63,591 nt of DNA from an uncultured Candidatus Bathyarchaeia archaeon (GTDB taxonomy: Archaea > Thermoproteota > Bathyarchaeia > Bathyarchaeales > Bathyarchaeaceae). The translations under genes and the position numbers were made by a program. Under the pieces are notes generated by a model, which saw only the letters and a program-made list of their open reading frames with translations, did not search any database and was not told where the DNA came from. The stretch spans positions 1 through 63,591 of the forward strand of contig CAYGBA010000002.1 in the NCBI GenBank assembly GCA_964347995.1, written 5' to 3'. This document shows, piece after piece, positions 9,121 to 63,591 of this stretch. Every line of letters starts with the position of its first letter. Within the stretch, counting starts at the first letter, position 1.

Positions 9121-9279
9121 TGGTCGGGCGGGCGGGATTTGAACCTGCGACACTCCGGTTTCTGCGTTGTGCGCTTGGTAGGCTGAATGATTATCTACCG
9201 TTGGTAGGCATCTACAGCGTCTCCGCCAGCCACTGTTGAGGCTGACTCGGAAGCTCTACCAAGCTGAGCTACCGCCCGC
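9121..9279 (-). tRNA. tRNA-Tyr(GUA) with two introns (about 29 nt at 30/31 and 52 nt at 37/38); CCA encoded
   Basis: Reverse complement: CGGGCGG-TA-GCTC-AGCTTGGTA-GAGC-T-TCCG [29 nt] GCTGTAG [52 nt] A-CCGGA-GTGTC-GCAGG-TTCAAAT-CCCGC-CCGCCCG-A-CCA. The spliced product has stem TCCGG/CCGGA and loop CUGUAGA. The C1-G72 pair fits archaeal tRNA-Tyr identity. Confidence 0.75.
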
Positions 9280-9901: not shown

Positions 9902-10021
9902 GGGCCGGTAGTTCAGCTTGGCATGAAAGATGACCAACTGATCATCAGTGTAGACGCCGCCTTCGCGTGGAGGACCCGAGAGAGGCGGAGGTCGCGGGTT
10001 CAAATCCCGCCCGGTCCACCA
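9902..10021 (+). tRNA. tRNA-Ala(CGC) with two introns (27 nt in the D-arm near 24/25, 15 nt at 37/38); CCA encoded
   Basis: GGGCCGG-TA-GTTC-AGCTTGGCAT-GAA[9928-9954]C-G-CCGCC-TTCGCG[9968-9982]A-GGCGG-AGGTC-GCGGG-TTCAAAT-CCCGC-CCGGTCC-A-CCA. The G3:U70 Ala identity pair is present. The spliced D-arm parallels the intron-less tRNA-Ala at 11735-11809. Confidence 0.8.
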
Positions 10022-11732: not shown

Positions 11733-11758
11733 GTGGACGGGACGGGATTTGAACCCGT
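11733..11758 (-). repeat. second copy of the 26-bp repeat (within and just past the 3' end of tRNA-Ala(GGC))
   Basis: Identical to 10276-10301 and in the same orientation. The two copies are separated by 1431 bp. Confidence 0.8.
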
Positions 11759-11809
11759 GACCTCGACGATGCCAACGTCGCGATCATTCCAAGCTGATCT
11801 ACCCGCCCA
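11735..11809 (-). tRNA. tRNA-Ala(GGC), intron-less, CCA not encoded
   Basis: Reverse complement: GGGCGGG-TA-GATC-AGCTTGGAAT-GATC-G-CGACG-TTGGCAT-CGTCG-AGGTC-ACGGG-TTCAAAT-CCCGT-CCCGTCC-A. G3:U70 is present. Confidence 0.9.
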
Positions 11810-30902: not shown

Positions 30903-31349
30903 TCAAATTAGCATAACTATCGTGTAGATTAGTCCCAAGGCGACTGTTAAAATCATGTCACAAAAAAACATTTCCTTCAATCCCCTTGGATAGAGATTCA
31001 AATCAACCTCCTTCTTTGAGAAAGGGTATAACGGTCGGCAAGGCCTCGTAAGAAAGTCCACGACAAAATGGCTTAACCCACAACTGAGTGTCAGTAGGAA
31101 TAGGTGAGAATAGACGACCTTAACAACTAGAGAGCCTGACAAGACTAGGGCGAGGCCTACAAGTTCGTGGAGCGGCGAACGAGATTCTACCCCAAACCTA
31201 CCTGTCCTAAACGCCCTTTTTAGATACGGAATATGATCGAAATCGGGAAAGACCGAAAAGAGAACGCCGATCAAAATGTCTGGTATAAAACTGATTCCTA
31301 AGAGCTTGGCTAGCAGCGGGCCTAATAAAGCGTGAAAGATTATGTTCAT
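30903..31349 (-). CDS. membrane-bound metal-dependent hydrolase-like protein (DUF457/YdjM-like)
   Basis: 148 aa and hydrophobic, with FPDFDHIP and SPLHE motifs resembling DUF457. Confidence 0.45.
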   Translation of the reverse strand: MNIIFHALLGPLLAKLLGISFIPDILIGVLFSVFPDFDHIPYLKRAFRTGRFGVESRSPLHELVGLALVLSGSLVVKVVYSHLFLLTLSCGLSHFVVDFLTRPCRPLYPFSKKEVDLNLYPRGLKEMFFCDMILTVALGLIYTIVMLI

Positions 31350-31379
31350 CGTTCACTCCGTGATGTGCTCAAGATTCCG

Positions 31380-32885
31380 TTAAGCGAGGAGTATGTCTAG
31401 AACGTCTAATGTGCGTAGAGGTTGATCTGGCTTTACTTCATAGCTGGAGTTAGCGACTAGGAGGGGGACTTTCATTTCTGCTGCGTGAAGGCCACCGTGT
31501 GTTCCTCGATGGGGCGGCAACTCTGGCATGAGGTCCCAGCCCATCCGAGAGTTGATAATTAGGTCTCCCGAACGCTCGCTCTCGAAGATCTGCGAAACTT
31601 GAACCGGTGCGTCTGGAAATTCCGTTTCGCGGGTGGCGGCAAGCCACTCCCGATCGTCTAGCCACTCTCTGTATGCGATCTTCCCATCTTCGACGATAGA
31701 GCCGTAGCCTAGAGGATCTGCTCCTTCAATGATATCGTAAGAGTATTCATTTCGCCCCCTTTTCCTTATGATTCCGTGTCCGTCGTGAGAATAGACATGG
31801 GAAGTGTTCTTGTTTTCAGCGATGAAGACATGTTGCACTGGCAGCAGACGGCGTACTAGGTCTATGAGGTTCACGCGTCCGCGACGAACCTTGTAGTTCT
31901 CAAGGTCTTCTAAGCTTGGTTTTTGCCGCCAATCATGTGGTATGTACTGGAGTGGGAAGGCTTTCTCTTCTGCGCCTTCCGCCGCTAAGTAGACATGCGC
32001 CATTCCATTGCCGCTTATGGCGACTGTGGCGTCAAATTCGCCGAGGCCTTGTAGGAAGGTCACTGGGAAGCGGCGAACATCCAATCCAATTGTGCTCATG
32101 AATTTTCCGAGATCGAAGTGCAGACTAGTGGGACGAAGCCCGTGATCGGAGCTGATCACGATAGAGGTGTTGTCGTAGAGGTTGAGGTCCATAAGAGTCT
32201 TTGCCATATGCCCAACTTGTTTGTCTACGTTCTGGATTGCGTGTCGTACCTCTTGAGAGAGTGGTCCGTGTTCGTGGCTGACCTCGTCCACGCCTGGCAT
32301 GTATGCGATGGAGAAGAGAGGGGGTTCTGTAGGGAATTTCATGCCACGCATCGCGGCTGAGCACCTGTAGACCAACTCGAATATACGTGCGGCAACCGCG
32401 TCTGCGTGTTCCCAAGTGAATAGTTTTAGGGGAGCTAAGAGTTTGGCCAGAACATTCGCGAGGGGAGGATATACGAATCTTGCTCCGCGTGTGATGGGCT
32501 CGAAGATCGCCGCTGTTGTGGAACCCTTTAGTCTTTCAAAGATGGTTTTGATCTTGCTAGTCATGTCTGTGTTCATCGCAAAAGCTCCTGGGCCGACATA
32601 GTCACGTTCGAATTCAAACCATGATAGGCGTCCATAATACTTGTAGCTGTTCTTCTTTCTGTCGAACCATCGGATGCCCGGTATGTTTAATGGTCCAGGG
32701 AATGCGCCTGTGAGAAAGGGGGCATGGGCTGGGCCAGTGGTTGATGGAAAAACGGTTACAGCGTTTTTTACAACGACGCCTCGGTCTGCGATATGCTTCT
32801 TGATGTTTGGCAAATCTCCTTGACTTAACATCTCGTAGAGTACATCAGGTCTACATCCGTCAACGAGGATAAATACAGAACGCAA
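31380..32885 (-). CDS. alkaline-phosphatase superfamily protein (nucleotide pyrophosphatase/phosphodiesterase-like)
   Basis: VFILVDGCRPDVL...FPSTTGPAHAPFLTG, mid-protein SSDHG and C-terminal HGGLH motifs are typical of the AP/NPP fold. Confidence 0.7.
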   Translation of the reverse strand: MRSVFILVDGCRPDVLYEMLSQGDLPNIKKHIADRGVVVKNAVTVFPSTTGPAHAPFLTGAFPGPLNIPGIRWFDRKKNSYKYYGRLSWFEFERDYVGPGAFAMNTDMTSKIKTIFERLKGSTTAAIFEPITRGARFVYPPLANVLAKLLAPLKLFTWEHADAVAARIFELVYRCSAAMRGMKFPTEPPLFSIAYMPGVDEVSHEHGPLSQEVRHAIQNVDKQVGHMAKTLMDLNLYDNTSIVISSDHGLRPTSLHFDLGKFMSTIGLDVRRFPVTFLQGLGEFDATVAISGNGMAHVYLAAEGAEEKAFPLQYIPHDWRQKPSLEDLENYKVRRGRVNLIDLVRRLLPVQHVFIAENKNTSHVYSHDGHGIIRKRGRNEYSYDIIEGADPLGYGSIVEDGKIAYREWLDDREWLAATRETEFPDAPVQVSQIFESERSGDLIINSRMGWDLMPELPPHRGTHGGLHAAEMKVPLLVANSSYEVKPDQPLRTLDVLDILLA

Positions 32886-33152: not shown

Positions 33153-34508
33153 TTACTGTGTCTCTGCACATAGATACTTAGTTGCCTGCAACTCTAGAGG
33201 GCAGCCTGCTCCGCAGACCTCAAGCTCTGGACATCCAGCACATTTTTCCGGTTTGTATTCTCTGGCTCTTAAACTGGTGCAGAGAGGATGGTTCCAGATT
33301 TTCTCCCAAGGATCTTTAAGAATGTTGCCGACTTCTTCAAAATAACTTTGGCAGGGATAGACCTCGCCTTTTGGGCCTATGCACATGTTTACTCGGGCGG
33401 CTGTGCAGGACTTAACGCCTAACCCATGATTGACGGGATTGAGTTGGCAGTACTGAGTCGGCGTGTACCACATGAATTTCATGCCTAGCTTATGGGCTTT
33501 CTCAATGATTTTCGGAAGTAACTGGTTTAATGTGTCGATCTTCAGAGCGAACTCATCGGCTATTGACGGAGCACTTCCGGAGTATATTATACTGTTGCAT
33601 GCGAAAACCTGTAGTCCCAGCTTATGTAAGAACTCGATGGTTTCAAAGAAGCTCTTCGCGTTGAGCTTGTTGAGAGTGGTGTTCGTGGTGATGTAGATTT
33701 GCGTTGGAATGACGTTCTTAATTCCTTCAACAGTCTCTTTCCAGCTCCCTTTAACACGCGTTATCGCATCATGTATTGCAGGATCGTGTGACTCAAGCGT
33801 AATCTGCACGAAGTCCAGTCCCGCATCTTCAAGTTTCTGTACGTAATCTTTGTCTTTTAGGCTGCGTCCGTTTGTGATTAGTCCCGTAACGATCCCCTTT
33901 TCCTGGGCGTAACGCAATAGTTCTGGCAAGTCCTCTCGTAGAGTCGGCTCGCCTCCAGTAAAGGTCAGCAAAAAGACACCAATCTTGTATACCCGGTCGA
34001 TTACTTCCTTCCATTCCTCTGTGGTTAATTCAGGAGTATCATGCGGTCCACCAGTGTAGCAGTGAACGCAATTGTTCTGGCATCTGAACGTTAACGCCAG
34101 GTCCATCCGTATTGGGGCCGAGAGTTCTTGGGAGAAGGGCTCCACCTGTTCAACATCCAAGAATGATATTGGACAAACCTCTTCAGTTTGGGCTAGCGTA
34201 CTTACGGTGTAGAGTATATGTTCATGGTCTTTCCGAGCGAGTTCTTCCTTGACTCGGTACATCCGCTTTATCTTCTTCACTACTTCCTCGGTTGGCATGC
34301 CCTGCATGAAGAAGAATGCGTGCGCTGTCGCTGTCTCGTTTAGATAGAGTACGGTGTTCGCGTTGATGACTAGTAGTCCCTTGCCGTCAGGCTCCACTCT
34401 TAGCTGAAGAGCCAAACCCGCATACTCGCCTCTTCCACGATACATGTATAGTCCGTGGGGAATTTCCGGCTTGCTCACGGCTTTCTTCGCTTTGCCAAGA
34501 ATGCTCAT
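33153..34508 (-). CDS. radical SAM enzyme with N-terminal PqqD/RRE-like domain and C-terminal SPASM domain
   Basis: LVINANTVLYLNETATAHAFFFMQGMPTEEVVKKIKRMY (PqqD-like). LTFRCQNNCVHCY (CxxxCxxC). C-terminal CIGPKGEVYPCQ...CAGCPELEVCGAGCP (SPASM). The ATG overlaps the upstream stop as ATGA. Confidence 0.8.
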   Translation of the reverse strand: MSILGKAKKAVSKPEIPHGLYMYRGRGEYAGLALQLRVEPDGKGLLVINANTVLYLNETATAHAFFFMQGMPTEEVVKKIKRMYRVKEELARKDHEHILYTVSTLAQTEEVCPISFLDVEQVEPFSQELSAPIRMDLALTFRCQNNCVHCYTGGPHDTPELTTEEWKEVIDRVYKIGVFLLTFTGGEPTLREDLPELLRYAQEKGIVTGLITNGRSLKDKDYVQKLEDAGLDFVQITLESHDPAIHDAITRVKGSWKETVEGIKNVIPTQIYITTNTTLNKLNAKSFFETIEFLHKLGLQVFACNSIIYSGSAPSIADEFALKIDTLNQLLPKIIEKAHKLGMKFMWYTPTQYCQLNPVNHGLGVKSCTAARVNMCIGPKGEVYPCQSYFEEVGNILKDPWEKIWNHPLCTSLRAREYKPEKCAGCPELEVCGAGCPLELQATKYLCAETQ

Positions 34509-36169
34509 GTGCTAGTACCCCCAGTCATCCCTACTCCCCCTGAGGCACACGCACAAGCGCAAGACACACAGGCACAGACGCAAGCGCAGGCTGCGCAAGC
34601 GCACGCACAACTAGAGCGGTGGTGTGCTGGTTGTCTAGATGTTTTCTGTGAGGGAGGTGGAGCAGGTATGATTGCGTTCGCAAACTTTTCCAGGTTGACG
34701 ACTATGTTGTTTGCGGTACCTTCTACTGCCGTGGCTATGTTATTTGCGAAGTCTGCTCCAGGAATCTTTGGTGGAACTGTTGGTCCTGAAGGTGGCGCTG
34801 TTGTAGGTTGGTATTCTGGTCTCGGATGATAATGGTAACCATACCAGTACCAGAACCAAAGGAGCTCGGGCTCAAAGACTCTAGTTCGAAAAGCATCTTC
34901 TGTGCGAGACCCGAATTTTTCGTCAAGTAACAGCCATAGGAGCTGTTCATCGTATGCTATGGAGGCAAGCTGAGCTGTGCCCGCTTGCTCCACTTGGTCC
35001 CAAGCTTTAGCCACGATCTTCTCATAGTACTTCATTGTATCCTTTCTGCAGTAGCCACGGAGTTTTTCCTCCACGTCTTCGCGGAGTTCCACGATCACTG
35101 TTGCGAGCTTTTCTTCGCTCAAAGTTCCGTCTTTTTTTATTGCTCTTAAGAATGTGTTCTCGTAGTATCTTAGAGGCTCCTCGTGTTCTTTTACAATTTT
35201 GAGGCTTACGGAAGGCTCTGTTGAGGTTACCCAGACAGCTCTTTTCTTGAGGAGGCTGTAGAGAATTGCGGTTACGATTTTAGTGGGCTTCAGTCCAAGA
35301 AGATAGGAGGCTTCAACCGCCGTTAGACCTCGCCTTATTCCCAATGTCTCCATTCTCAAGACTGGCCTAACATAGTTTCCCTTGCGCGCGACATAGACTA
35401 CGCTTCCGATGATGCCTACAAGGAGCAGGAGGACCCCGATCCACACTGCATTGTTCTTGAGGAAAGCAAGTATCCCTTTCTCTCTTACTTCGTAATGCTC
35501 AACGTATTCCTTAGGAAAGGAAACCCCACAATAAGGCAAACCATCAGTGTCGCGAGGAAACCTATCGCCAGGTTGTAGATTCCTTCTTCCCCAATAGAGG
35601 ACAAGCCTGTCATCTTCAACATCAGTGCCATTCCAATCTGGGACATTGACAACTTGGTTGGTTACACCTAAAGGTAGGACGACTAGAACACGAAGCTCAT
35701 ATATGCTGGCGTCATCCCACCAAACTGGGGTGAACTGCATGCCTACATTGTCTGGGTTTTGATCATCTTCCCAGATCATGTGGCCAACGTTCGTTAGGAG
35801 TGTGAATCGAATGCTCTGTGTAGTGCTGATTGATGTGTAGAGATGGACCTGTGCTCTGTAGTTGTTTCCTTCGCTTGCGTCTGCTGTCTGCAGTGTGCGA
35901 TTGTTTTCGTCTCTAGCTTCTCCGATGGTGAAGTCTCGTTGTGGTTGGCCTACATTTACGTAGCGGATTGTTCCTTGGTCGCAGGTTATCCCTATGTCGT
36001 ATAGTAGGTCGATTGTTCCATCCTGGTTAATCCATATTTTGGCATATTCGTGGTCCAAATGGTATTGTACCTCATCTGCTTTGACAGAGTCAGGACTTAG
36101 TAGTAGAAGGGCTACAAGTGGAATTGTTGCAAGGAGCGTGATGTGTTTTATGGATTTTTTGTTCACCAT
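34505..36169 (-). CDS. DUF2207-like membrane protein with C-terminal alternating Cys-Ala tail
   Basis: Start at MVNKKSIKHITLLATIPLVALLLL (signal), then an extracytoplasmic domain and TM helix AVWIGVLLLLVGIIGSVVYVA. GLTAVEASYLLGLKPTKIVTAILYSLL is a DUF2207-like hallmark. Tail: SSCACACAACACVCACVSCACACASGGVGMTGGTST. Confidence 0.7.
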   Translation of the reverse strand: MVNKKSIKHITLLATIPLVALLLLSPDSVKADEVQYHLDHEYAKIWINQDGTIDLLYDIGITCDQGTIRYVNVGQPQRDFTIGEARDENNRTLQTADASEGNNYRAQVHLYTSISTTQSIRFTLLTNVGHMIWEDDQNPDNVGMQFTPVWWDDASIYELRVLVVLPLGVTNQVVNVPDWNGTDVEDDRLVLYWGRRNLQPGDRFPRDTDGLPYCGVSFPKEYVEHYEVREKGILAFLKNNAVWIGVLLLLVGIIGSVVYVARKGNYVRPVLRMETLGIRRGLTAVEASYLLGLKPTKIVTAILYSLLKKRAVWVTSTEPSVSLKIVKEHEEPLRYYENTFLRAIKKDGTLSEEKLATVIVELREDVEEKLRGYCRKDTMKYYEKIVAKAWDQVEQAGTAQLASIAYDEQLLWLLLDEKFGSRTEDAFRTRVFEPELLWFWYWYGYHYHPRPEYQPTTAPPSGPTVPPKIPGADFANNIATAVEGTANNIVVNLEKFANAIIPAPPPSQKTSRQPAHHRSSCACACAACACVCACVSCACACASGGVGMTGGTST

Positions 36170-36504
36170 TTTGGTTCCTCTGTTACCTCGAAGGTGTGTC
36201 CGCAGTATGAGCATTTTATTGATGGAACGCCGTCTATGATCTTTGTTTGGTTGATGTCGAGGCTTGCTCCACAGTTTGGGCACCTTATCGGCTGGACCTT
36301 GATTTGTCCGGGTACTTCGAGTTTCTGAATGATCTGTGTTGGTTTTTGCTTTCTTATGTAATAGAGTAATGCGAAGCTTACTATGAAGAGGAATGCACTT
36401 GTGACTAGTCGAAGTGGATCGTATGATGATGCCCAGGCGAAGATGACGCCAAAGAACAATAGAATAGCAGATATGATGTAGCCTATGATTTCAGTGGCGG
36501 ACAT
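36163..36504 (-). CDS. small membrane protein (2 TM) with C-terminal CxxC...CxxC zinc ribbon
   Basis: IIGYIISAILLFFGVIFAW and AFLFIVSFALLYYI, then IRCPNCGASL...IKCSYCGHTF. Its stop overlaps the downstream ATG (ATGGTGA). Confidence 0.55.
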   Translation of the reverse strand: MSATEIIGYIISAILLFFGVIFAWASSYDPLRLVTSAFLFIVSFALLYYIRKQKPTQIIQKLEVPGQIKVQPIRCPNCGASLDINQTKIIDGVPSIKCSYCGHTFEVTEEPKW

Positions 36505-36872
36505 GTCTCTTCACACAATTCCAGTTGACGACTCCCGCAGCGTCTTTTATGAATCTACAGTAACGTTAGCACTTGGCCAATTATATAAATGAATAACTTT
36601 TTCTCAAAACTGCAAACCCGTTACTCAAGTCTATCGTCATCAGCCAAACAACAAAATGCCGAAAAATCGGATCAACAGATTAGATTTGTCCCTTCCCGAA
36701 TAGCATTCTATTTGGAGCCTATTTTGACTAGTACAGAAGACCCAAGTCTAGAAGCATTATACACGCACGCACAATGCTCAAAAACAAGAATATATCAGAA
36801 ATCGATACATCAGAAATAGATCAGATGAGTGCACGGCTAGCCGCGCACCCACAGCAAAGCTAAGTCCAGACC

Positions 36873-37346
36873 TCAGCTGTCGTCAGAATCCTTGACAGTA
36901 AGGAAAGGATTCATCCGAAGAGCTTCGGAAAGCGAGGGCTTGTTCATCCCCATGGTTAAGATCTTCTTGTGAATGTGGTTCAGAGAGTTCTCGGTGCAAT
37001 CCAGCAGGCTCTGCCCCTCAACGGTAAGCTCGTAGACCTTTCTTGGCCTTTCGGCTTCTAGATCCCAGCGACTCTCAACGTAGCCTTTCTCCTCAAGCTC
37101 GCTGAGCATAGGATAGATCGTGCTGGGGCCGAAGTAGACACCGAAGTTTTTCCTGATGCTGGTGATGATCTTGTACCCGTGCATAGGATGCACTCTCAGA
37201 AACTGGAGGACTACGAGATCTAGGAGTCCTCTCATGAGCTTCGTCTGGACCTCTTTCATTTTGTGCTTCATTCCTATATCCTTCCTGTACTCTTGTTCAA
37301 CAGTTTTGTTGTTACACGTGTGTACGATATGTCTCTTATCGGACAT
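36873..37346 (-). CDS. PadR-family transcriptional regulator
   Basis: LLDLVVLQFLRVHPMHGYKIITSIRKNFG...STIYPMLSELEEKGYVESRW. The true start may be the internal MKHKMKEV. Confidence 0.8.
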   Translation of the reverse strand: MSDKRHIVHTCNNKTVEQEYRKDIGMKHKMKEVQTKLMRGLLDLVVLQFLRVHPMHGYKIITSIRKNFGVYFGPSTIYPMLSELEEKGYVESRWDLEAERPRKVYELTVEGQSLLDCTENSLNHIHKKILTMGMNKPSLSEALRMNPFLTVKDSDDS

Positions 37347-37475: not shown

Positions 37476-37835
37476 ATGAAGCAACCGGTTTTGGAAGTTG
37501 AAGAGTTGAGCGAAACCTTCAGAAAGCAACTTGTTCAACGCTTCTCCAAAAACTTCCTCGATATTCATGTTCTGAGACTCGTCCAGAAAGAACCGATGTG
37601 GGGTTACAAGATAATAAAACAAACAGAGAAACTCCTCGGTGTCAAACTGAGACACGGCGCAATTTATCCTCTCCTCAACTCACTGGAGGACGGAGGCTTC
37701 CTCAGGAGCAGAAAAGAAATCAAGGGAAGAAGGGTGAGAAAGATTTACAAGATCACATCAAAAGGAATGCAGCTCATACAAGCCTACTACGAGTATCAAA
37801 GGGAACAACTACAAGAACAAGACATTGAGGTCTAG
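37476..37835 (+). CDS. PadR-family transcriptional regulator
   Basis: LDIHVLRLVQKEPMWGYKIIKQTEKLLG...GAIYPLLNSLEDGGFLRS. A TAAATAAA TATA-like element lies about 20 nt upstream of the ATG, so the transcript is possibly leaderless. Confidence 0.8.
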   Translation: MKQPVLEVEELSETFRKQLVQRFSKNFLDIHVLRLVQKEPMWGYKIIKQTEKLLGVKLRHGAIYPLLNSLEDGGFLRSRKEIKGRRVRKIYKITSKGMQLIQAYYEYQREQLQEQDIEV

Positions 37836-37847
37836 GAGCGCCAAAAT

Positions 37848-38879
37848 ATGAGGTACGTATCCCCAAAAGAAAGTGAGAAAACTAGAGCGAATAATGAAAC
37901 TAAGATGATTGAACAAGTTCAAAGGTTTTTGGAAGAGAGAAGCCGAGAAGCTCTGCAGATCGCAAAGAAGAAAATTCTGAAAGAAAAAATCGAATGTGAA
38001 GCGATTGAAGATGCTTTCAGGTATTACCTAGAAGATTGGGAAGATGTCATTCATCCCGGATTGCTTTCGATCGCTTGTGAGGCTGTGGGAGGGGACGTTG
38101 AAAAAACAGTTCCGATGCAAGTTGTCATGCTGCTGCTAACTGCAGGAGCTGACATACACGACGACATCATTGATGAGTCAAAGACAAAATATGGAAAACC
38201 CACCGTCCTGGCAAGGTTTGGCAAGGATACTGCTCTTCTTGTAGGTGATGCCCTTTTGATGAAGGCCCTAGTCCTTCTTCACAAATTGGAGAATGAATTC
38301 CCTACCGCGAAGATGAATGCCATCTGGAACACAATAGATAGTCGATTTTTCGAGTTGGGAAACGCTGAAGCCCTTGAAGCTCTTTGGAAAGGCAACATAG
38401 ATCTTTCTGTGGAAGAATACTGGCGGATTCTGAGAATGAAGGCCTCAACTTTCGAAGCTCACGCGCGCATTGGCGCCGTTGTGGGAGGTGGAGAGCAAAA
38501 AATTGTTGACCTATTGGCGAATTACGGTAGGACACTAGGAATTCTGCTCAGCATAAGAGAAGACTTCATCGACGTATTTGAACCCGCGGAACTCCAGAAC
38601 CGGATGAAGAATGAATGCCTGCCGCTGCCTATCCTCTATGCTTTCAAGAACCCACAGGCCAAGAAAGCGATACTGAATTACCTTTCGAAAAAAGAAGTCT
38701 CTGAAAAGGATGCGGAAACAATAGTTGATATCCTCTTCGAGGAAGATAATGTCAAAGCACTTAGAAATCAAGTCAAACAGCTAGCTGAAGAAGCCTGCAC
38801 CAATATTTCTTATATGCCAAACAAAAATCTAGCTTACCAGATGAAAACACTAATTAAGGGCGCGATCGAAGATCTATAA
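37848..38879 (+). CDS. trans-isoprenyl (polyprenyl) diphosphate synthase family protein
   Basis: First Asp-rich motif LTAGADIHDDIIDES; degenerate second motif SIREDFIDV. The product chain length cannot be inferred. Confidence 0.75.
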   Translation: MRYVSPKESEKTRANNETKMIEQVQRFLEERSREALQIAKKKILKEKIECEAIEDAFRYYLEDWEDVIHPGLLSIACEAVGGDVEKTVPMQVVMLLLTAGADIHDDIIDESKTKYGKPTVLARFGKDTALLVGDALLMKALVLLHKLENEFPTAKMNAIWNTIDSRFFELGNAEALEALWKGNIDLSVEEYWRILRMKASTFEAHARIGAVVGGGEQKIVDLLANYGRTLGILLSIREDFIDVFEPAELQNRMKNECLPLPILYAFKNPQAKKAILNYLSKKEVSEKDAETIVDILFEEDNVKALRNQVKQLAEEACTNISYMPNKNLAYQMKTLIKGAIEDL

Positions 38880-62003: not shown

Positions 62004-63591
62004 GTGAGAGTGAACAGGAAGATTGTTCTAGTCGCTTTTTTAGTCGTTTTGACAGCACTTAGTCAGCCATATGTAGCTCCAGTAGGAGCGGAAGCACACA
62101 CAAGCTCAGATGAGATCGGAGAGAGCAATGACCTTCTTCTTGCAGAAACTAGGTCGTTTGTAGAGGGCAGTGGAACCTATTTTGATATAACTAATAGCGA
62201 TTATCTTAACATCAGTTTAATGAGTAGTGAAATGGTCTACATGCTCTTGGAATCCGTCCCGAAGATGGTCAGTTTTATCATAGAAGGCGACAGCTCAGCA
62301 ACCTCAACCATTTTGAGCTTCACTGGCTTCCCACCTAACGCCACGTACTATCGATATCAAGACGGTAACTTAACAGAGAGCTTCACAACAAATTCTGACG
62401 GTAACTATAGCTACGCGCAAGACATTGCCAGTCCACATCACATATTCATTGCAGAAAACGCTACTACAATCTATATTCGACCTGACGGAACTGTTTATTC
62501 AGATACCGGTCAACCAGTACCTATTAGCGTAAGCGTGGTTGACGGCGTCTATACTTATTCCTTCACTAGCGACATCAGTGAAACGATCGTAGTGCAACGA
62601 AGTAACGTGGTAATAGAGGGGAATGGTTATACACTGGAGGGTTCTGGAAGCGGTAACGGATTCTATGTACGTTACATTAGCGATATGACTATAAAGAATG
62701 TAGTTATCAAAGGGTGGAGCTATGCAGTCGCGTTATACCGATCTAGCGATAACAACATTTCAGGCAACACCATCACCAACACCTGGGGGGGCATCCAGCC
62801 ACAGCAGTGTAGCGGCGACACTATCTCAGGCAACACCATCACCAACAACACATATGGCATCCGTCCTAGATACCGGTGTAGCGGCTACAACATTTCAGGC
62901 AACACCATCAACAACAGCGTCGGTGGCATCTACCTGTGGAATGCCAGCGGCAGCATTTCAGCCAATATCATCAACAACAGTAGCGCGTATGGCATCCACT
63001 TTGACACGTGCTACGGTAAGGGGGGCAACAACGTTTCAGGCAACACCATCAACAACAACAACCTAGGGGGCATCAGCCTGGCAGGTCCGTCTAGCGGTAA
63101 CAACATTTCAGGCAACACCATCAACAACAACGGCCGCAACGGCATCGCGTTATGGAAGTTCAGCCACAACAACAGCATTTCAGGAAACACCATACAAAAC
63201 AACAATCGGAATGGTATCTACCAATACAATTCTAGTGGCAACAACATTTCGGGTAACACGATACAAAACAACAACTGGGATGGCATCAGTATGGCAGGTG
63301 GGTCGAGCGGCAACAGCATTTCAGGAAACACCATACAAAACAACAACCAGAACGGCATCGTTCTTTGGGAGTCCAGCGGAAACATCATCCACCACAACAA
63401 TATCATCGATAACTCAAAGCAAGCCGTTGATACAGACCCAGCAGCTAACGATTGGCATCACCCTGACTTGTTGGAAGGAAACTACTGGTCTGACTATCCC
63501 GGTGTGGACGACGGAAGCGGCACGGGCAAGCACTCTATAGCTGGCGATGGCATAGGAGACACCAACATCCCTTGGCCAGCCACAGACTACG
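62004..63591 (+). CDS. partial CDS: secreted right-handed parallel beta-helix (PbH1/NosD-like) repeat protein, continues past right edge
   Basis: GTG 62004 (or 61995/62010) opens VRVNRKIVLVAFLVVLTALSQPYVAPVGAEA (signal). The frame stays open to 63591. About 10 coils of ~22 aa have consensus NNISGNTIxNNxxxGI. It is absent from the ORF track because no stop is reached. Confidence 0.8.
   Translation, partial: MRVNRKIVLVAFLVVLTALSQPYVAPVGAEAHTSSDEIGESNDLLLAETRSFVEGSGTYFDITNSDYLNISLMSSEMVYMLLESVPKMVSFIIEGDSSATSTILSFTGFPPNATYYRYQDGNLTESFTTNSDGNYSYAQDIASPHHIFIAENATTIYIRPDGTVYSDTGQPVPISVSVVDGVYTYSFTSDISETIVVQRSNVVIEGNGYTLEGSGSGNGFYVRYISDMTIKNVVIKGWSYAVALYRSSDNNISGNTITNTWGGIQPQQCSGDTISGNTITNNTYGIRPRYRCSGYNISGNTINNSVGGIYLWNASGSISANIINNSSAYGIHFDTCYGKGGNNVSGNTINNNNLGGISLAGPSSGNNISGNTINNNGRNGIALWKFSHNNSISGNTIQNNNRNGIYQYNSSGNNISGNTIQNNNWDGISMAGGSSGNSISGNTIQNNNQNGIVLWESSGNIIHHNNIIDNSKQAVDTDPAANDWHHPDLLEGNYWSDYPGVDDGSGTGKHSIAGDGIGDTNIPWPATDY
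62748..63410 (+). repeat. tandem ~66-nt coding repeats of the beta-helix gene
   Basis: Recurrent AACATTTCAGGCAACACCATCAACAACAAC-like units. These create the spurious alternative-frame ORFs at 62722-63066, 63211-63540, 63011-63205 and 63218-63406. Confidence 0.8.

Follow-up and report, generated by a model that had tools for sequence, protein, structure and literature searches.

A conserved gene module pairing a radical SAM/SPASM enzyme with a membrane protein that bears a Cys-Ala tail in anaerobic archaea and bacteria

Introduction

Radical S-adenosylmethionine (SAM) maturases that bear an RRE (the recognition element for peptides that are made by the ribosome and modified after translation, or RiPPs) are known as enzymes acting on short, released peptides. 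These include the sacti- and ranthipeptide synthases, which are SPASM and twitch enzymes with an RRE and have Cys-rich cores as their substrates. Among SPASM enzymes with protein substrates, QhpD introduces thioether bonds into quinohemoprotein amine dehydrogenase, in its QhpC subunit; anSME converts Cys or Ser to formylglycine in sulfatases. Here, we describe a three-gene module in which the gene for a radical SAM/SPASM enzyme overlaps that of a large membrane protein ending in a regular Cys-Ala tail. It lies in 63,591 nucleotides of contig CAYGBA010000002.1 (assembly GCA_964347995.1), from an uncultured Candidatus Bathyarchaeia archaeon, and this whole stretch is referred to as the window.

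A possible parallel was recently reported for a different enzyme class. Membrane proteins matching TIGR04222 end in an unstructured, Ser/Gly-rich C-terminal region with Cys residues scattered through it. Their genes often adjoin those of MNIO enzymes, of which they were proposed, without experiment, to be substrates; the tails are predicted to be periplasmic (PMC12452194, 2025).

The module in the window was first noticed from its sequence alone. This original prediction took the Cys-rich tail of the membrane protein to be the substrate of the radical SAM enzyme, and its component claims are considered below with the results that bear on them.

Gene arrangement

Three minus-strand open reading frames (ORFs), encoding proteins of 113, 554 and 451 aa, overlap start to stop (Table 1). 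The gene 1/gene 2 junction is ATGGTGA, a 7 nt overlap, and the gene 2/gene 3 junction is ATGA, a 4 nt overlap. The ORF list and the junction sequences agree to the base with the genes, coordinates and overlaps originally given, and the motifs that had been quoted, including the 10 Cys in 21 residues, are present in the sequence as described. Products of the same three lengths were called independently in a public record, 92 kb long, of this same contig (GCA_012975005.1, JABAOC010003568.1). An upstream GTG at 36283 would lengthen the gene 2 ORF, but MV opens all 22 aligned orthologues, so that the true start is the ATG at 36169. The three genes are one translationally coupled module, and a TATA-like sequence, TTTATATAA, some 80 nt ahead of gene 1, is a possible archaeal promoter for the operon.

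The tail protein and the enzyme are encoded together

To survey the module, one genome per GTDB species was scanned with the tail motif (see below) as the pattern, and 80 loci were recovered. A radical SAM orthologue (41-74 % identity) was found in 76 of these, nearly always directly downstream of the tail gene. In the reverse test, 80 metagenome loci were chosen using patterns from the radical SAM enzyme only. Seven of them are truncated before 190 bp of upstream sequence is reached, and in all of the remaining 73 the tail protein is encoded directly upstream of the enzyme. The stop codon of the tail gene and the start codon of the radical SAM gene overlap or are no more than 30 nt apart in 128 of 131 loci. 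Synteny between the radical SAM gene and a gene for a Cys-tailed protein, on which the original prediction depended, therefore holds in both directions, and it reaches Chloroflexota and Bacillota.

Clustering of the neighbouring ORFs in the 80 genome loci revealed only three families conserved over their phylogenetic range, namely the tail protein (80 loci), the radical SAM enzyme (75-76 loci) and a zinc-ribbon protein with two transmembrane (TM) helices (54 loci). No protease, transporter, AlkP-like, YdjM, PadR or polyprenyl synthetase family was conserved across these loci in the clustering.

The genome loci are mostly from Bathyarchaeia, and the remainder are from other Thermoproteota, Thermococci, Methanomicrobia, Theionarchaea, Promethearchaeota, Chloroflexota and Bacillota. 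A few titles (Acidoferrum, Nitrospirales and Nanoarchaeia) look like mis-binned contigs. All of the taxa that carry the radical SAM module are anaerobes. In one cultured methanogen, Methanooceanicella nereidis, the tail and radical SAM genes (WP_230741659.1 and the gene next to it) are present with a 4 nt overlap and are preceded by a gene for a 2-TM protein that lacks the ribbon.

Not all loci are intact or identically arranged. In seven (L005, L037-L040, L051 and L052), the tail or radical SAM gene appears split or truncated, with radical SAM ORFs of, for example, 170-223 aa, and several of these are from long-read metagenome-assembled genomes or from assemblies labelled 'chromosome'. Either assembly frameshift errors or pseudogenes would account for them. 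The Thermoproteota locus L062 (3975-5092, minus strand) has its radical SAM gene upstream of the tail gene, and a 132 aa 2-TM protein and a 240 aa coiled-coil protein are encoded downstream on the opposite strand. On sequence alone, the coiled-coil protein may be PspA/IM30-like, and this would point to membrane stress.

Conservation of the tail

The core of the tail, CACACAACACVCACVSCACACASGGVG, includes 10 Cys in the 21 residues from 521 to 541, arranged as CxCxC-xx-CxCxCxC-xx-CxCxC and followed by SGGVG. In close homologues the motif C[AV]CAC[AV]xCAC[AV]CACVSCACACA[SG]GG is near-constant, and all 10 Cys are retained in 119 of 120. In an alignment of 50 more distant relatives (24-53 % identity), 13 columns are invariant, 8 of them within CACACA-GG. 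The motif recurs near-unchanged in over 100 orthologues, which is far beyond chance. Full-length members of the family have one of a few stereotyped tail types: the archaeal 10-Cys form, a form found in a large branch in which a Gly/Ser-rich stretch is followed by CACACAC[AV][GS]CACACAGGGR, and a few shorter variants. The same uniformity was found using a profile search, which is less biased than the motif-selected genome scan and recovered 821 relatives, counted as clusters at 50 % identity (E≤0.001 against 1.8 billion cluster representatives). The original prediction had supposed that the tail would be conserved, and it is in fact the most conserved part of the gene 2 protein.

Among 133 distinct DNA versions of the core, TGT and TGC and all four Ala codons are used freely, but the residues are fixed. 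As synonymous codons vary in this way, selection is acting on the protein and not on a DNA repeat. The possibility that the tail is a DNA repeat or the product of low-complexity drift was rejected on these grounds, and Tandem Repeats Finder reports no tandem repeat at this position. An ORF of 124 aa on the plus strand (34455-34829), rich in AQAQ and AHAQ, overlaps the tail-coding region. It is a mirror of the Cys and Ala codons (TGY GCN) and not a gene; the codon variation fits the minus-strand frame. In 119 of the 133 distinct sequences, GGA encodes the second Gly after the core, and this often creates GGAGG just ahead of the radical SAM start (34529-34545 in the window, and the equivalent position in the other loci). 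The GGG motif of the tail may also serve the enzyme gene as a ribosome-binding site.

Two relatives, P0261 (659 aa) and P0296 (675 aa), have the Cys-Ala motif in an internal position, followed by a further domain of about 95 residues. Unless these are fused gene calls, nearness of the motif to the C-terminus would not be an absolute requirement.

A second conserved stretch, IPGADFANNIATAVEGTANNIVVNLEKFANAIIP, is found 20-50 residues ahead of the Cys core and resembles the leader of a RiPP precursor. Its consensus, derived from 103 archaeal and bacterial representatives, is lPG..FA...v...e..s...v.n...f...vt..tnP.p, with I469, P470, G471, A472, F474, A475, N477 and E483 in invariant columns, and it is followed by a variable linker. 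We infer that this segment is the docking site of the RRE of the enzyme. No NCBIfam model matches either the tail or the leader-like segment, even at E≤10.

A regular array of thiols could have a simpler role, namely that the tail undergoes no covalent change and is a metallothionein-like module binding metal or Fe-S, or a cluster scaffold, that partners the radical SAM/SPASM enzyme in cluster or cofactor chemistry or in electron transfer. The 7-10 invariant Cys in CxCxC spacing, whose thiols would all point the same way on a β-strand, the conserved His just upstream and the absence of a fold in AlphaFold2 (AF2) models made without ligands are all consistent with this. However, the Ala, Val and Ser residues between the Cys are strictly conserved and, like the conserved leader-like segment, would not be needed for simple metal binding, and RREs, which dock peptides, are typically found in enzymes that modify the peptide they bind. 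We therefore regard an unmodified metal-binding tail as very unlikely. Rather, as the tail is the most conserved part of a protein that is paired with a peptide-modifying enzyme, it is very probably the substrate of that enzyme.

The radical SAM/SPASM enzyme

The gene 3 protein matches the Pfam models Radical_SAM (E=1.5e-27, residues 139-294) and SPASM (E=2.3e-10, residues 368-427), and the CxxxCxxC motif and SPASM domain assigned to it at the outset are thereby confirmed. The radical SAM cluster motif is invariant in the alignments. The SPASM Cys residues and C354 are retained in 19 diverse orthologues, and the C-terminal Cys in most of them, so that the pattern of seven or eight Cys expected where there are two auxiliary [4Fe-4S] clusters is present. 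C112, in a Cys-Pro pair between the N-terminal domain and the core, is an additional conserved residue. The closest solved sequences are SkfB (5.5e-20), PqqE (1.5e-16), Tes (7tol, 6.3e-12) and SuiB (9.2e-11).

The N-terminal domain had been described as PqqD/RRE-like. For the window protein alone the Pfam PqqD match is below the cut-off (E=0.048-0.065), but the assignment is solid for the family, as PqqD matches 14 of 16 diverse orthologues (best 1.6e-7) and a profile of the first approximately 112 residues of 16 orthologues matches the lasso peptide RREs of TfuB1 (6jx3_B, E=1.4e-6) and TbiB1 (0.016). In the AF2 model, which is of low confidence here, the order of elements is β3-α3 (strands at residues 19-24, 33-38 and 45-48, and helices at 60-68, 73-84 and 88-105). 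The best structural matches are to the RRE-bearing enzymes SuiB and SkfB over approximately 440 columns, and to PqqE and anSME, which lack an RRE, over approximately 300. By these profile comparisons, the N-terminus is an RRE at the family level.

No named family could be assigned to the enzyme. AlbA, SkfB, StsB, PqqE, MftC, ScmE, GeoRSP, ACGX and others were considered and rejected, as every NCBIfam equivalog scores far below its cut-off. The enzyme is therefore outside the curated families, and homology does not fix its chemistry. A role in anti-phage defence was also rejected, as PADLOC detects only a generic viperin-like radical SAM similarity.

The membrane protein encoded by gene 2

Over 1500 homologues of the 554 aa protein were found at E≤0.001, and the best 120 are 57-100 % identical to it; those with a named source are all from Bathyarchaeia. 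The annotations given to family members by their sources include hypothetical protein, DUF2207 domain-containing, zinc ribbon domain-containing and OST subunit 1. No Pfam or NCBIfam model scored above its cut-off for the window protein.

AF2 models of the gene 2 and gene 3 proteins are of low overall confidence (mean pLDDT 61) and were used only for secondary structure, for the confident N-terminal domain and for fold matches. In gene 2, the N-terminal hydrophobic signal or anchor precedes a β-sandwich domain (pLDDT about 85-90) that resembles the N-terminal domains of LTA4H and other M1 aminopeptidases and of ribophorin I/Ost1 (Foldseek, E 1e-9 to 1e-7). After the single TM helix is a helical domain modelled with moderate confidence, and the last 125 residues are disordered. 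Hydropathy analysis of 50 relatives revealed no robust second TM segment after the central helix. In these relatives, Lys plus Arg residues average 0.88 before the TM helix and 4.0 after it, and the number after exceeds that before in 46 of the 50. By the positive-inside rule, this excess predicts that the C-terminal half, including the tail, is cytoplasmic, on the same side of the membrane as the enzyme and the zinc ribbon. The extracytoplasmic domain, one TM helix and cytoplasmic part originally outlined are thus supported by both AF2 and hydropathy. The Trp/Tyr-rich patch in the cytoplasmic part is too short and insufficiently hydrophobic for a TM helix and is probably interfacial; an aromatic patch is found at the equivalent position in distant relatives also.

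The original description of the protein as DUF2207-like, which included the segment GLTAVEASYLLGLKPTKIVTAILYSLL (residues 281-307), was only partly sustained. The distant similarity and the overall architecture remain, but the match of DUF2207_C to residues 282-382 (E=0.042) scores 14 bits against a Pfam cut-off of 33, and the DUF2207 N-domain model does not match. When 22 orthologues were searched at E≤0.1, the N-domain model matched three and the C-domain model two, and the score of the relative P0293 was 23.9 against a cut-off of 24.4. Membership of DUF2207 was therefore rejected. TIGR04222 matches residues 247-371 of the window protein (E=0.0088, 15.7 bits against a cut-off of 43), and it is the sole NCBIfam model that recurs in the tail-protein family, where 10 of 50 members have a match at E≤0.1, the best of them 7.5e-6 and none reaching the cut-off. 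Taken together, these matches indicate a kinship to DUF2207 and TIGR04222 that is real but distant.

A rival possibility keeps the tail as substrate but differs in chemistry. The enzyme could abstract hydrogen from the Cys β-carbon or the backbone and generate thioaldehyde- or formylglycine-like, heterocyclic or epimerised products in place of thioethers; it would then be an anaerobic counterpart of the O2-dependent MNIO enzymes, possibly giving a metal-chelating tail. In addition to the TIGR04222 matches, the proposal that TIGR04222 tails are MNIO substrates (PMC12452194), the restriction of the radical SAM module to anaerobes, the presence of anSME, which abstracts a Cys β-carbon hydrogen, among the best structural matches and the His that flanks the core in many lineages are consistent with such chemistry. 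However, the tail contains no anSME-type C-x-(A/P)-x-R motif, anSME has no RRE while this enzyme does, and the MNIO-TIGR04222 link is itself unproven and concerns tails predicted to be periplasmic and not, as here, cytoplasmic. Overall, we consider these other products unlikely.

The zinc-ribbon protein encoded by gene 1

The original description of gene 1 as encoding a 2-TM protein with a CxxC...CxxC zinc ribbon was accurate. The 113 aa product has two TM helices in its N-terminal part and, on the cytoplasmic side, a zinc ribbon in its C-terminal part, matched by Zn_ribbon_4 (Pfam, E=5.9e-8) and MJ0042_CXXC (NCBIfam, E=6.5e-7), and it ends in EEPKW. The gene is upstream of the tail gene in 54 of the 80 genome loci, including loci from Chloroflexota and Promethearchaeota, and was undetected in 26, most of which retain the tail-radical SAM pair. 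In five loci (from Thermococci, Methanomicrobia and Theionarchaea) that have no separate gene 1, a ribbon (CPNCGAP...C.YC) is inserted into the cytoplasmic domain of the tail protein; the protein P0315 has a Pfam match to DUF7575. This fusion ties the small zinc-ribbon protein to the cytoplasmic domain of the tail protein, of which it would be an accessory partner.

A further possibility is that the tail protein is not the substrate but anchors or regulates an enzyme that acts on the zinc-ribbon protein, on a membrane lipid (the kind of substrate used by Tes and Gms) or on a small molecule. There is a weak resemblance between the zinc ribbon and the Cys-rich peptides of TIGR04165 (E=5.8e-4, far below the cut-off of 60 bits), Tes is a detectable relative of the enzyme, and a polyprenyl synthetase gene is found 1.3 kb away in the window. 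Against this, most loci without a detectable zinc-ribbon gene still encode the pair, and the polyprenyl synthetase, PadR and AlkP-like genes are not conserved neighbours. A lipid-modifying enzyme of the Tes/Gms type was specifically rejected, because the match to Tes covers the core only and because in Gms the N-terminal domain consists of six helices (PMC11186832), whereas that of the enzyme described here is not a helical cap but a β3-α3 RRE. The extreme conservation of the tail would also be left unexplained, and we consider a substrate other than the tail highly improbable.

Table 1. Features of the three-gene module, with positions in the window
Feature	Position	Strand	Basis
Gene 1, accessory 2-TM zinc-ribbon membrane protein	36163..36504	-	ORF; Pfam, NCBIfam
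Zinc ribbon of gene 1, residues 73-107, CPNCG...CSYCG	36184..36288	-	Pfam and NCBIfam matches over residues 73-107
Gene 2, 554 aa membrane protein, putative protein substrate	34505..36169	-	ORF; homologue searches
Extracytoplasmic β-sandwich domain, residues 35-220, after N-terminal hydrophobic signal/anchor (residues 1-31)	35510..36067	-	AF2, Foldseek
Single central TM helix, about residues 233-260	35390..35473	-	AF2 helix 233-266; hydropathy peak
Cytoplasmic helical domain, residues 272-430, opening with conserved METLGIRRGLTAVEA; weak DUF2207_C/TIGR04222 region	34880..35356	-	Pfam, NCBIfam, sub-threshold
Trp/Tyr-rich patch LLWFWYWYGYHYH, residues 436-448	34826..34864	-	Read from sequence
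Leader-like segment IPGADFANNIATAVEGTANNIVVNLEKFANAIIP, residues 469-502, proposed RRE docking site	34664..34765	-	Consensus of 103 representatives
Cys-Ala core CACACAACACVCACVSCACACASGGVG, residues 521-547, proposed modification site	34529..34609	-	Conservation, codon variation
Gene 3, 451 aa radical SAM/SPASM enzyme with N-terminal RRE	33153..34508	-	ORF; Pfam, solved sequences, synteny
RRE (PqqD-like) domain, about residues 17-105	34194..34460	-	AF2, family profile, Pfam PqqD
Radical SAM cluster motif C143-x3-C147-x2-C150	34059..34082	-	Read from sequence; invariant in alignments
SPASM domain C368-x12-G-x4-C386 ... C423-x2-C426-x5-C432-x3-C436 ... C447	33168..33407	-	Pfam; conserved Cys
TATA-like TTTATATAA, possible archaeal operon promoter	36581..36589	-	Seen in sequence

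Proposed function

The following model is our preferred interpretation. The 554 aa protein would be positioned in the membrane with the β-sandwich outside and the C-terminal half in the cytoplasm, and the cytoplasmic half would end as a built-in RiPP precursor, made up of a leader of approximately 35 residues (PGxDFAN...F...P), a variable linker, the (Cys-Ala)n core and GGG near the C-terminus. The enzyme would dock on the leader-like segment via its RRE and modify the core using 5'-deoxyadenosyl radical chemistry and two auxiliary Fe-S clusters. As genes for a protease or an exporter do not accompany the module, the modified tail is expected to remain on the membrane protein. We consider this sequence of docking, modification and retention to be probable. 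The RRE, the synteny and the conservation of the tail are all favourable to the original view of the tail as substrate, which is nonetheless still something that we infer.

The likeliest chemistry would be formation of intramolecular thioethers of the sactionine or ranthionine type, which would join Cys sulfurs to carbons of neighbouring residues and create a rigid, cross-linked tail. This leading guess follows the precedent of the SPASM and twitch enzymes that have both an RRE and a Cys-rich core as substrate and, provided that the tail is the substrate, we would put it at slightly short of an even chance.

Several observations weigh against the model. The pLDDT of the tail in the AF2 model is <35, and the His residues close to the core, like its CxCxC pattern, would also suit metal binding. 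The NCBIfam maturase models score far below their cut-offs with the enzyme (NirJ2, 151 of 500 bits; PqqE, 124 of 381; SkfB, 89 of 300; AlbA, 79 of 850), and the best generic matches are NirJ2, AhbD, PqqE and MftC and not sactisynthases. Selection by the tail motif makes the uniformity of the tail in the set of 80 genome loci partly a matter of construction. Finally, in four of the 80 (L059, L074, L078 and L079), no radical SAM gene is present within about 6 kb of the tail gene.

In its widest form, the proposal is that anaerobes share a widespread system built on a radical SAM/SPASM enzyme that, guided by its RRE, places a modification of a new kind on a fixed (Cys-Ala)n sequence. That sequence would lie in the cytoplasm, at the C-terminus of a membrane protein related to DUF2207 and TIGR04222, and the system would be an O2-independent counterpart of the proposed MNIO-TIGR04222 pairing. 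This is tentative, and we view it as plausible but somewhat less likely to be correct than not. If it is true, the enzyme could produce either a 'ladder' of thioethers or a structure that is derived from Cys and binds metal, and RiPP logic would be extended to membrane-protein maturation, with the modification retained by a large membrane protein. It would also provide a first functional handle on the low-complexity tails of this superfamily, and the module is an entry point to the function of the DUF2207 and TIGR04222 families. The module is present in a large share of Bathyarchaeia, which are among the most abundant uncultured archaea of anoxic sediments, as well as in methanogens, Thermococci, Asgard archaea, Chloroflexota and Bacillota, and conserved cell biology of anaerobes is therefore at stake. 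As the (Cys-Ala)n core is simple and can be synthesised, and a cultured host is available in Methanooceanicella nereidis, the question is directly testable.

Surroundings of the module in the window

Directly upstream of the operon are two divergent genes for PadR-family regulators (36873-37346, minus strand, and 37476-37835, plus strand), followed by the polyprenyl synthetase gene at 37848-38879. Downstream of the radical SAM gene, after a gap of 267 nt, genes on the minus strand (30903-32885) encode a 501 aa protein of the type I phosphodiesterase/AlkP superfamily, with a TTG start, and a membrane protein of the YdjM family. When PadR, YdjM and AlkP-like queries were used in tblastn searches, no match was found in the 80 genome loci. 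The possibility that the enzyme is an anSME acting on the AlkP/sulfatase-like protein (31380-32885) was rejected because of this absence, and because the tail lacks the motif and the enzyme has an RRE.

Elsewhere in the window, Rfam reports tRNAs at 9124-9278 (minus strand, 155 nt) and 9902-10018 (plus strand, 117 nt) that are not reported by ARAGORN and are probably intron-containing archaeal tRNAs. The tRNA-Ala(GGC) at 11733-11808 is the only tRNA common to both. Tandem repeats of 69-72 nt (and 141 nt), with 72-78 % identity, at the end of the window (62752-63359) probably encode an Asn/Thr/Gly-rich repeat protein that runs off the window.

Comparison with known systems

The module has most in common with the sactipeptide, ranthipeptide and streptide maturases (AlbA, SkfB, CteB, PapB and SuiB). 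A PqqD-like RRE, CxxxCxxC and a SPASM (or twitch) domain are shared, SkfB and SuiB are the best matches to the enzyme in both sequence and structure, and in each case a gene for a Cys-rich core adjoins that of the enzyme, with a conserved leader-like stretch ahead of the core. However, the core is part of a short free peptide in those systems and is the tail of a 554 aa membrane protein here. None of the three conserved families is a leader protease or an exporter, and the strict (Cys-Ala)n core has no NCBIfam match and was absent from the literature searched.

Two of the systems defined in NCBIfam by Haft-type analysis, namely the ACGX-repeat (TIGR04340) and TIGR04165 (methanogens) systems, also couple a SPASM enzyme to a target with repeats of small residues and Cys. 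TIGR04340 matches the enzyme at 5.8e-21 (75 bits, against a cut-off of 400), but the targets in these systems are short peptides, unlike the gene 2 protein. QhpD and anSME are alike in being SPASM enzymes that act on Cys residues of a protein which retains the modification; their substrates are soluble enzymes or subunits with unrelated motifs.

With DUF2207 (PF09972/PF20990), a common plan is shared by the gene 2 protein: a signal or anchor, an extracytoplasmic β-sandwich, a TM helix, a cytoplasmic helical domain and a low-complexity tail. Some gene 2 relatives are annotated as DUF2207 by their sources. Canonical DUF2207 proteins have two extra C-terminal TM helices, and these are absent from the gene 2 protein.

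In a full-text literature search, no paper linking DUF2207 to radical SAM enzymes was found, and searches on SPASM in Bathyarchaeota, archaeal ranthipeptides, ACGX, and RRE with membrane proteins returned nothing relevant beyond the MNIO/TIGR04222 study. The original remark that no described system of this composition was known still stands for the radical SAM pairing, of which we found no description, but the concept is less unprecedented than supposed, as it is paralleled by MNIO and TIGR04222 (PMC12452194). The family looks like a separate, radical SAM-coupled one, undescribed in the literature, Pfam and NCBIfam releases searched.

The MNIO/TIGR04222 pairing resembles the module in combining a large membrane protein, a low-complexity tail containing Cys and a genetic link to a RiPP-type maturase, and the window protein shows weak homology to TIGR04222 in its juxtamembrane 'LTAVEA..LL' region. 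The differences are that the maturase is an MNIO (DUF692) there and a radical SAM/SPASM enzyme with an RRE here, that the hosts are mostly Actinomycetota there and anaerobic archaea and bacteria here, that the tail is a loose Gly/Ser/Cys sequence there and a fixed CACACAC-xx-CACACA-GGG here, and that the tail is predicted to be periplasmic there and cytoplasmic here. No MNIO (DUF692) match was found in Pfam searches of the neighbouring genes in the window, and in the other loci, where neighbours were clustered by BLAST, the radical SAM/SPASM enzyme is the sole conserved enzyme partner. The comparison suggests an anaerobic/aerobic pair of enzymes, radical SAM and MNIO, that would be analogous to anSME and FGE.

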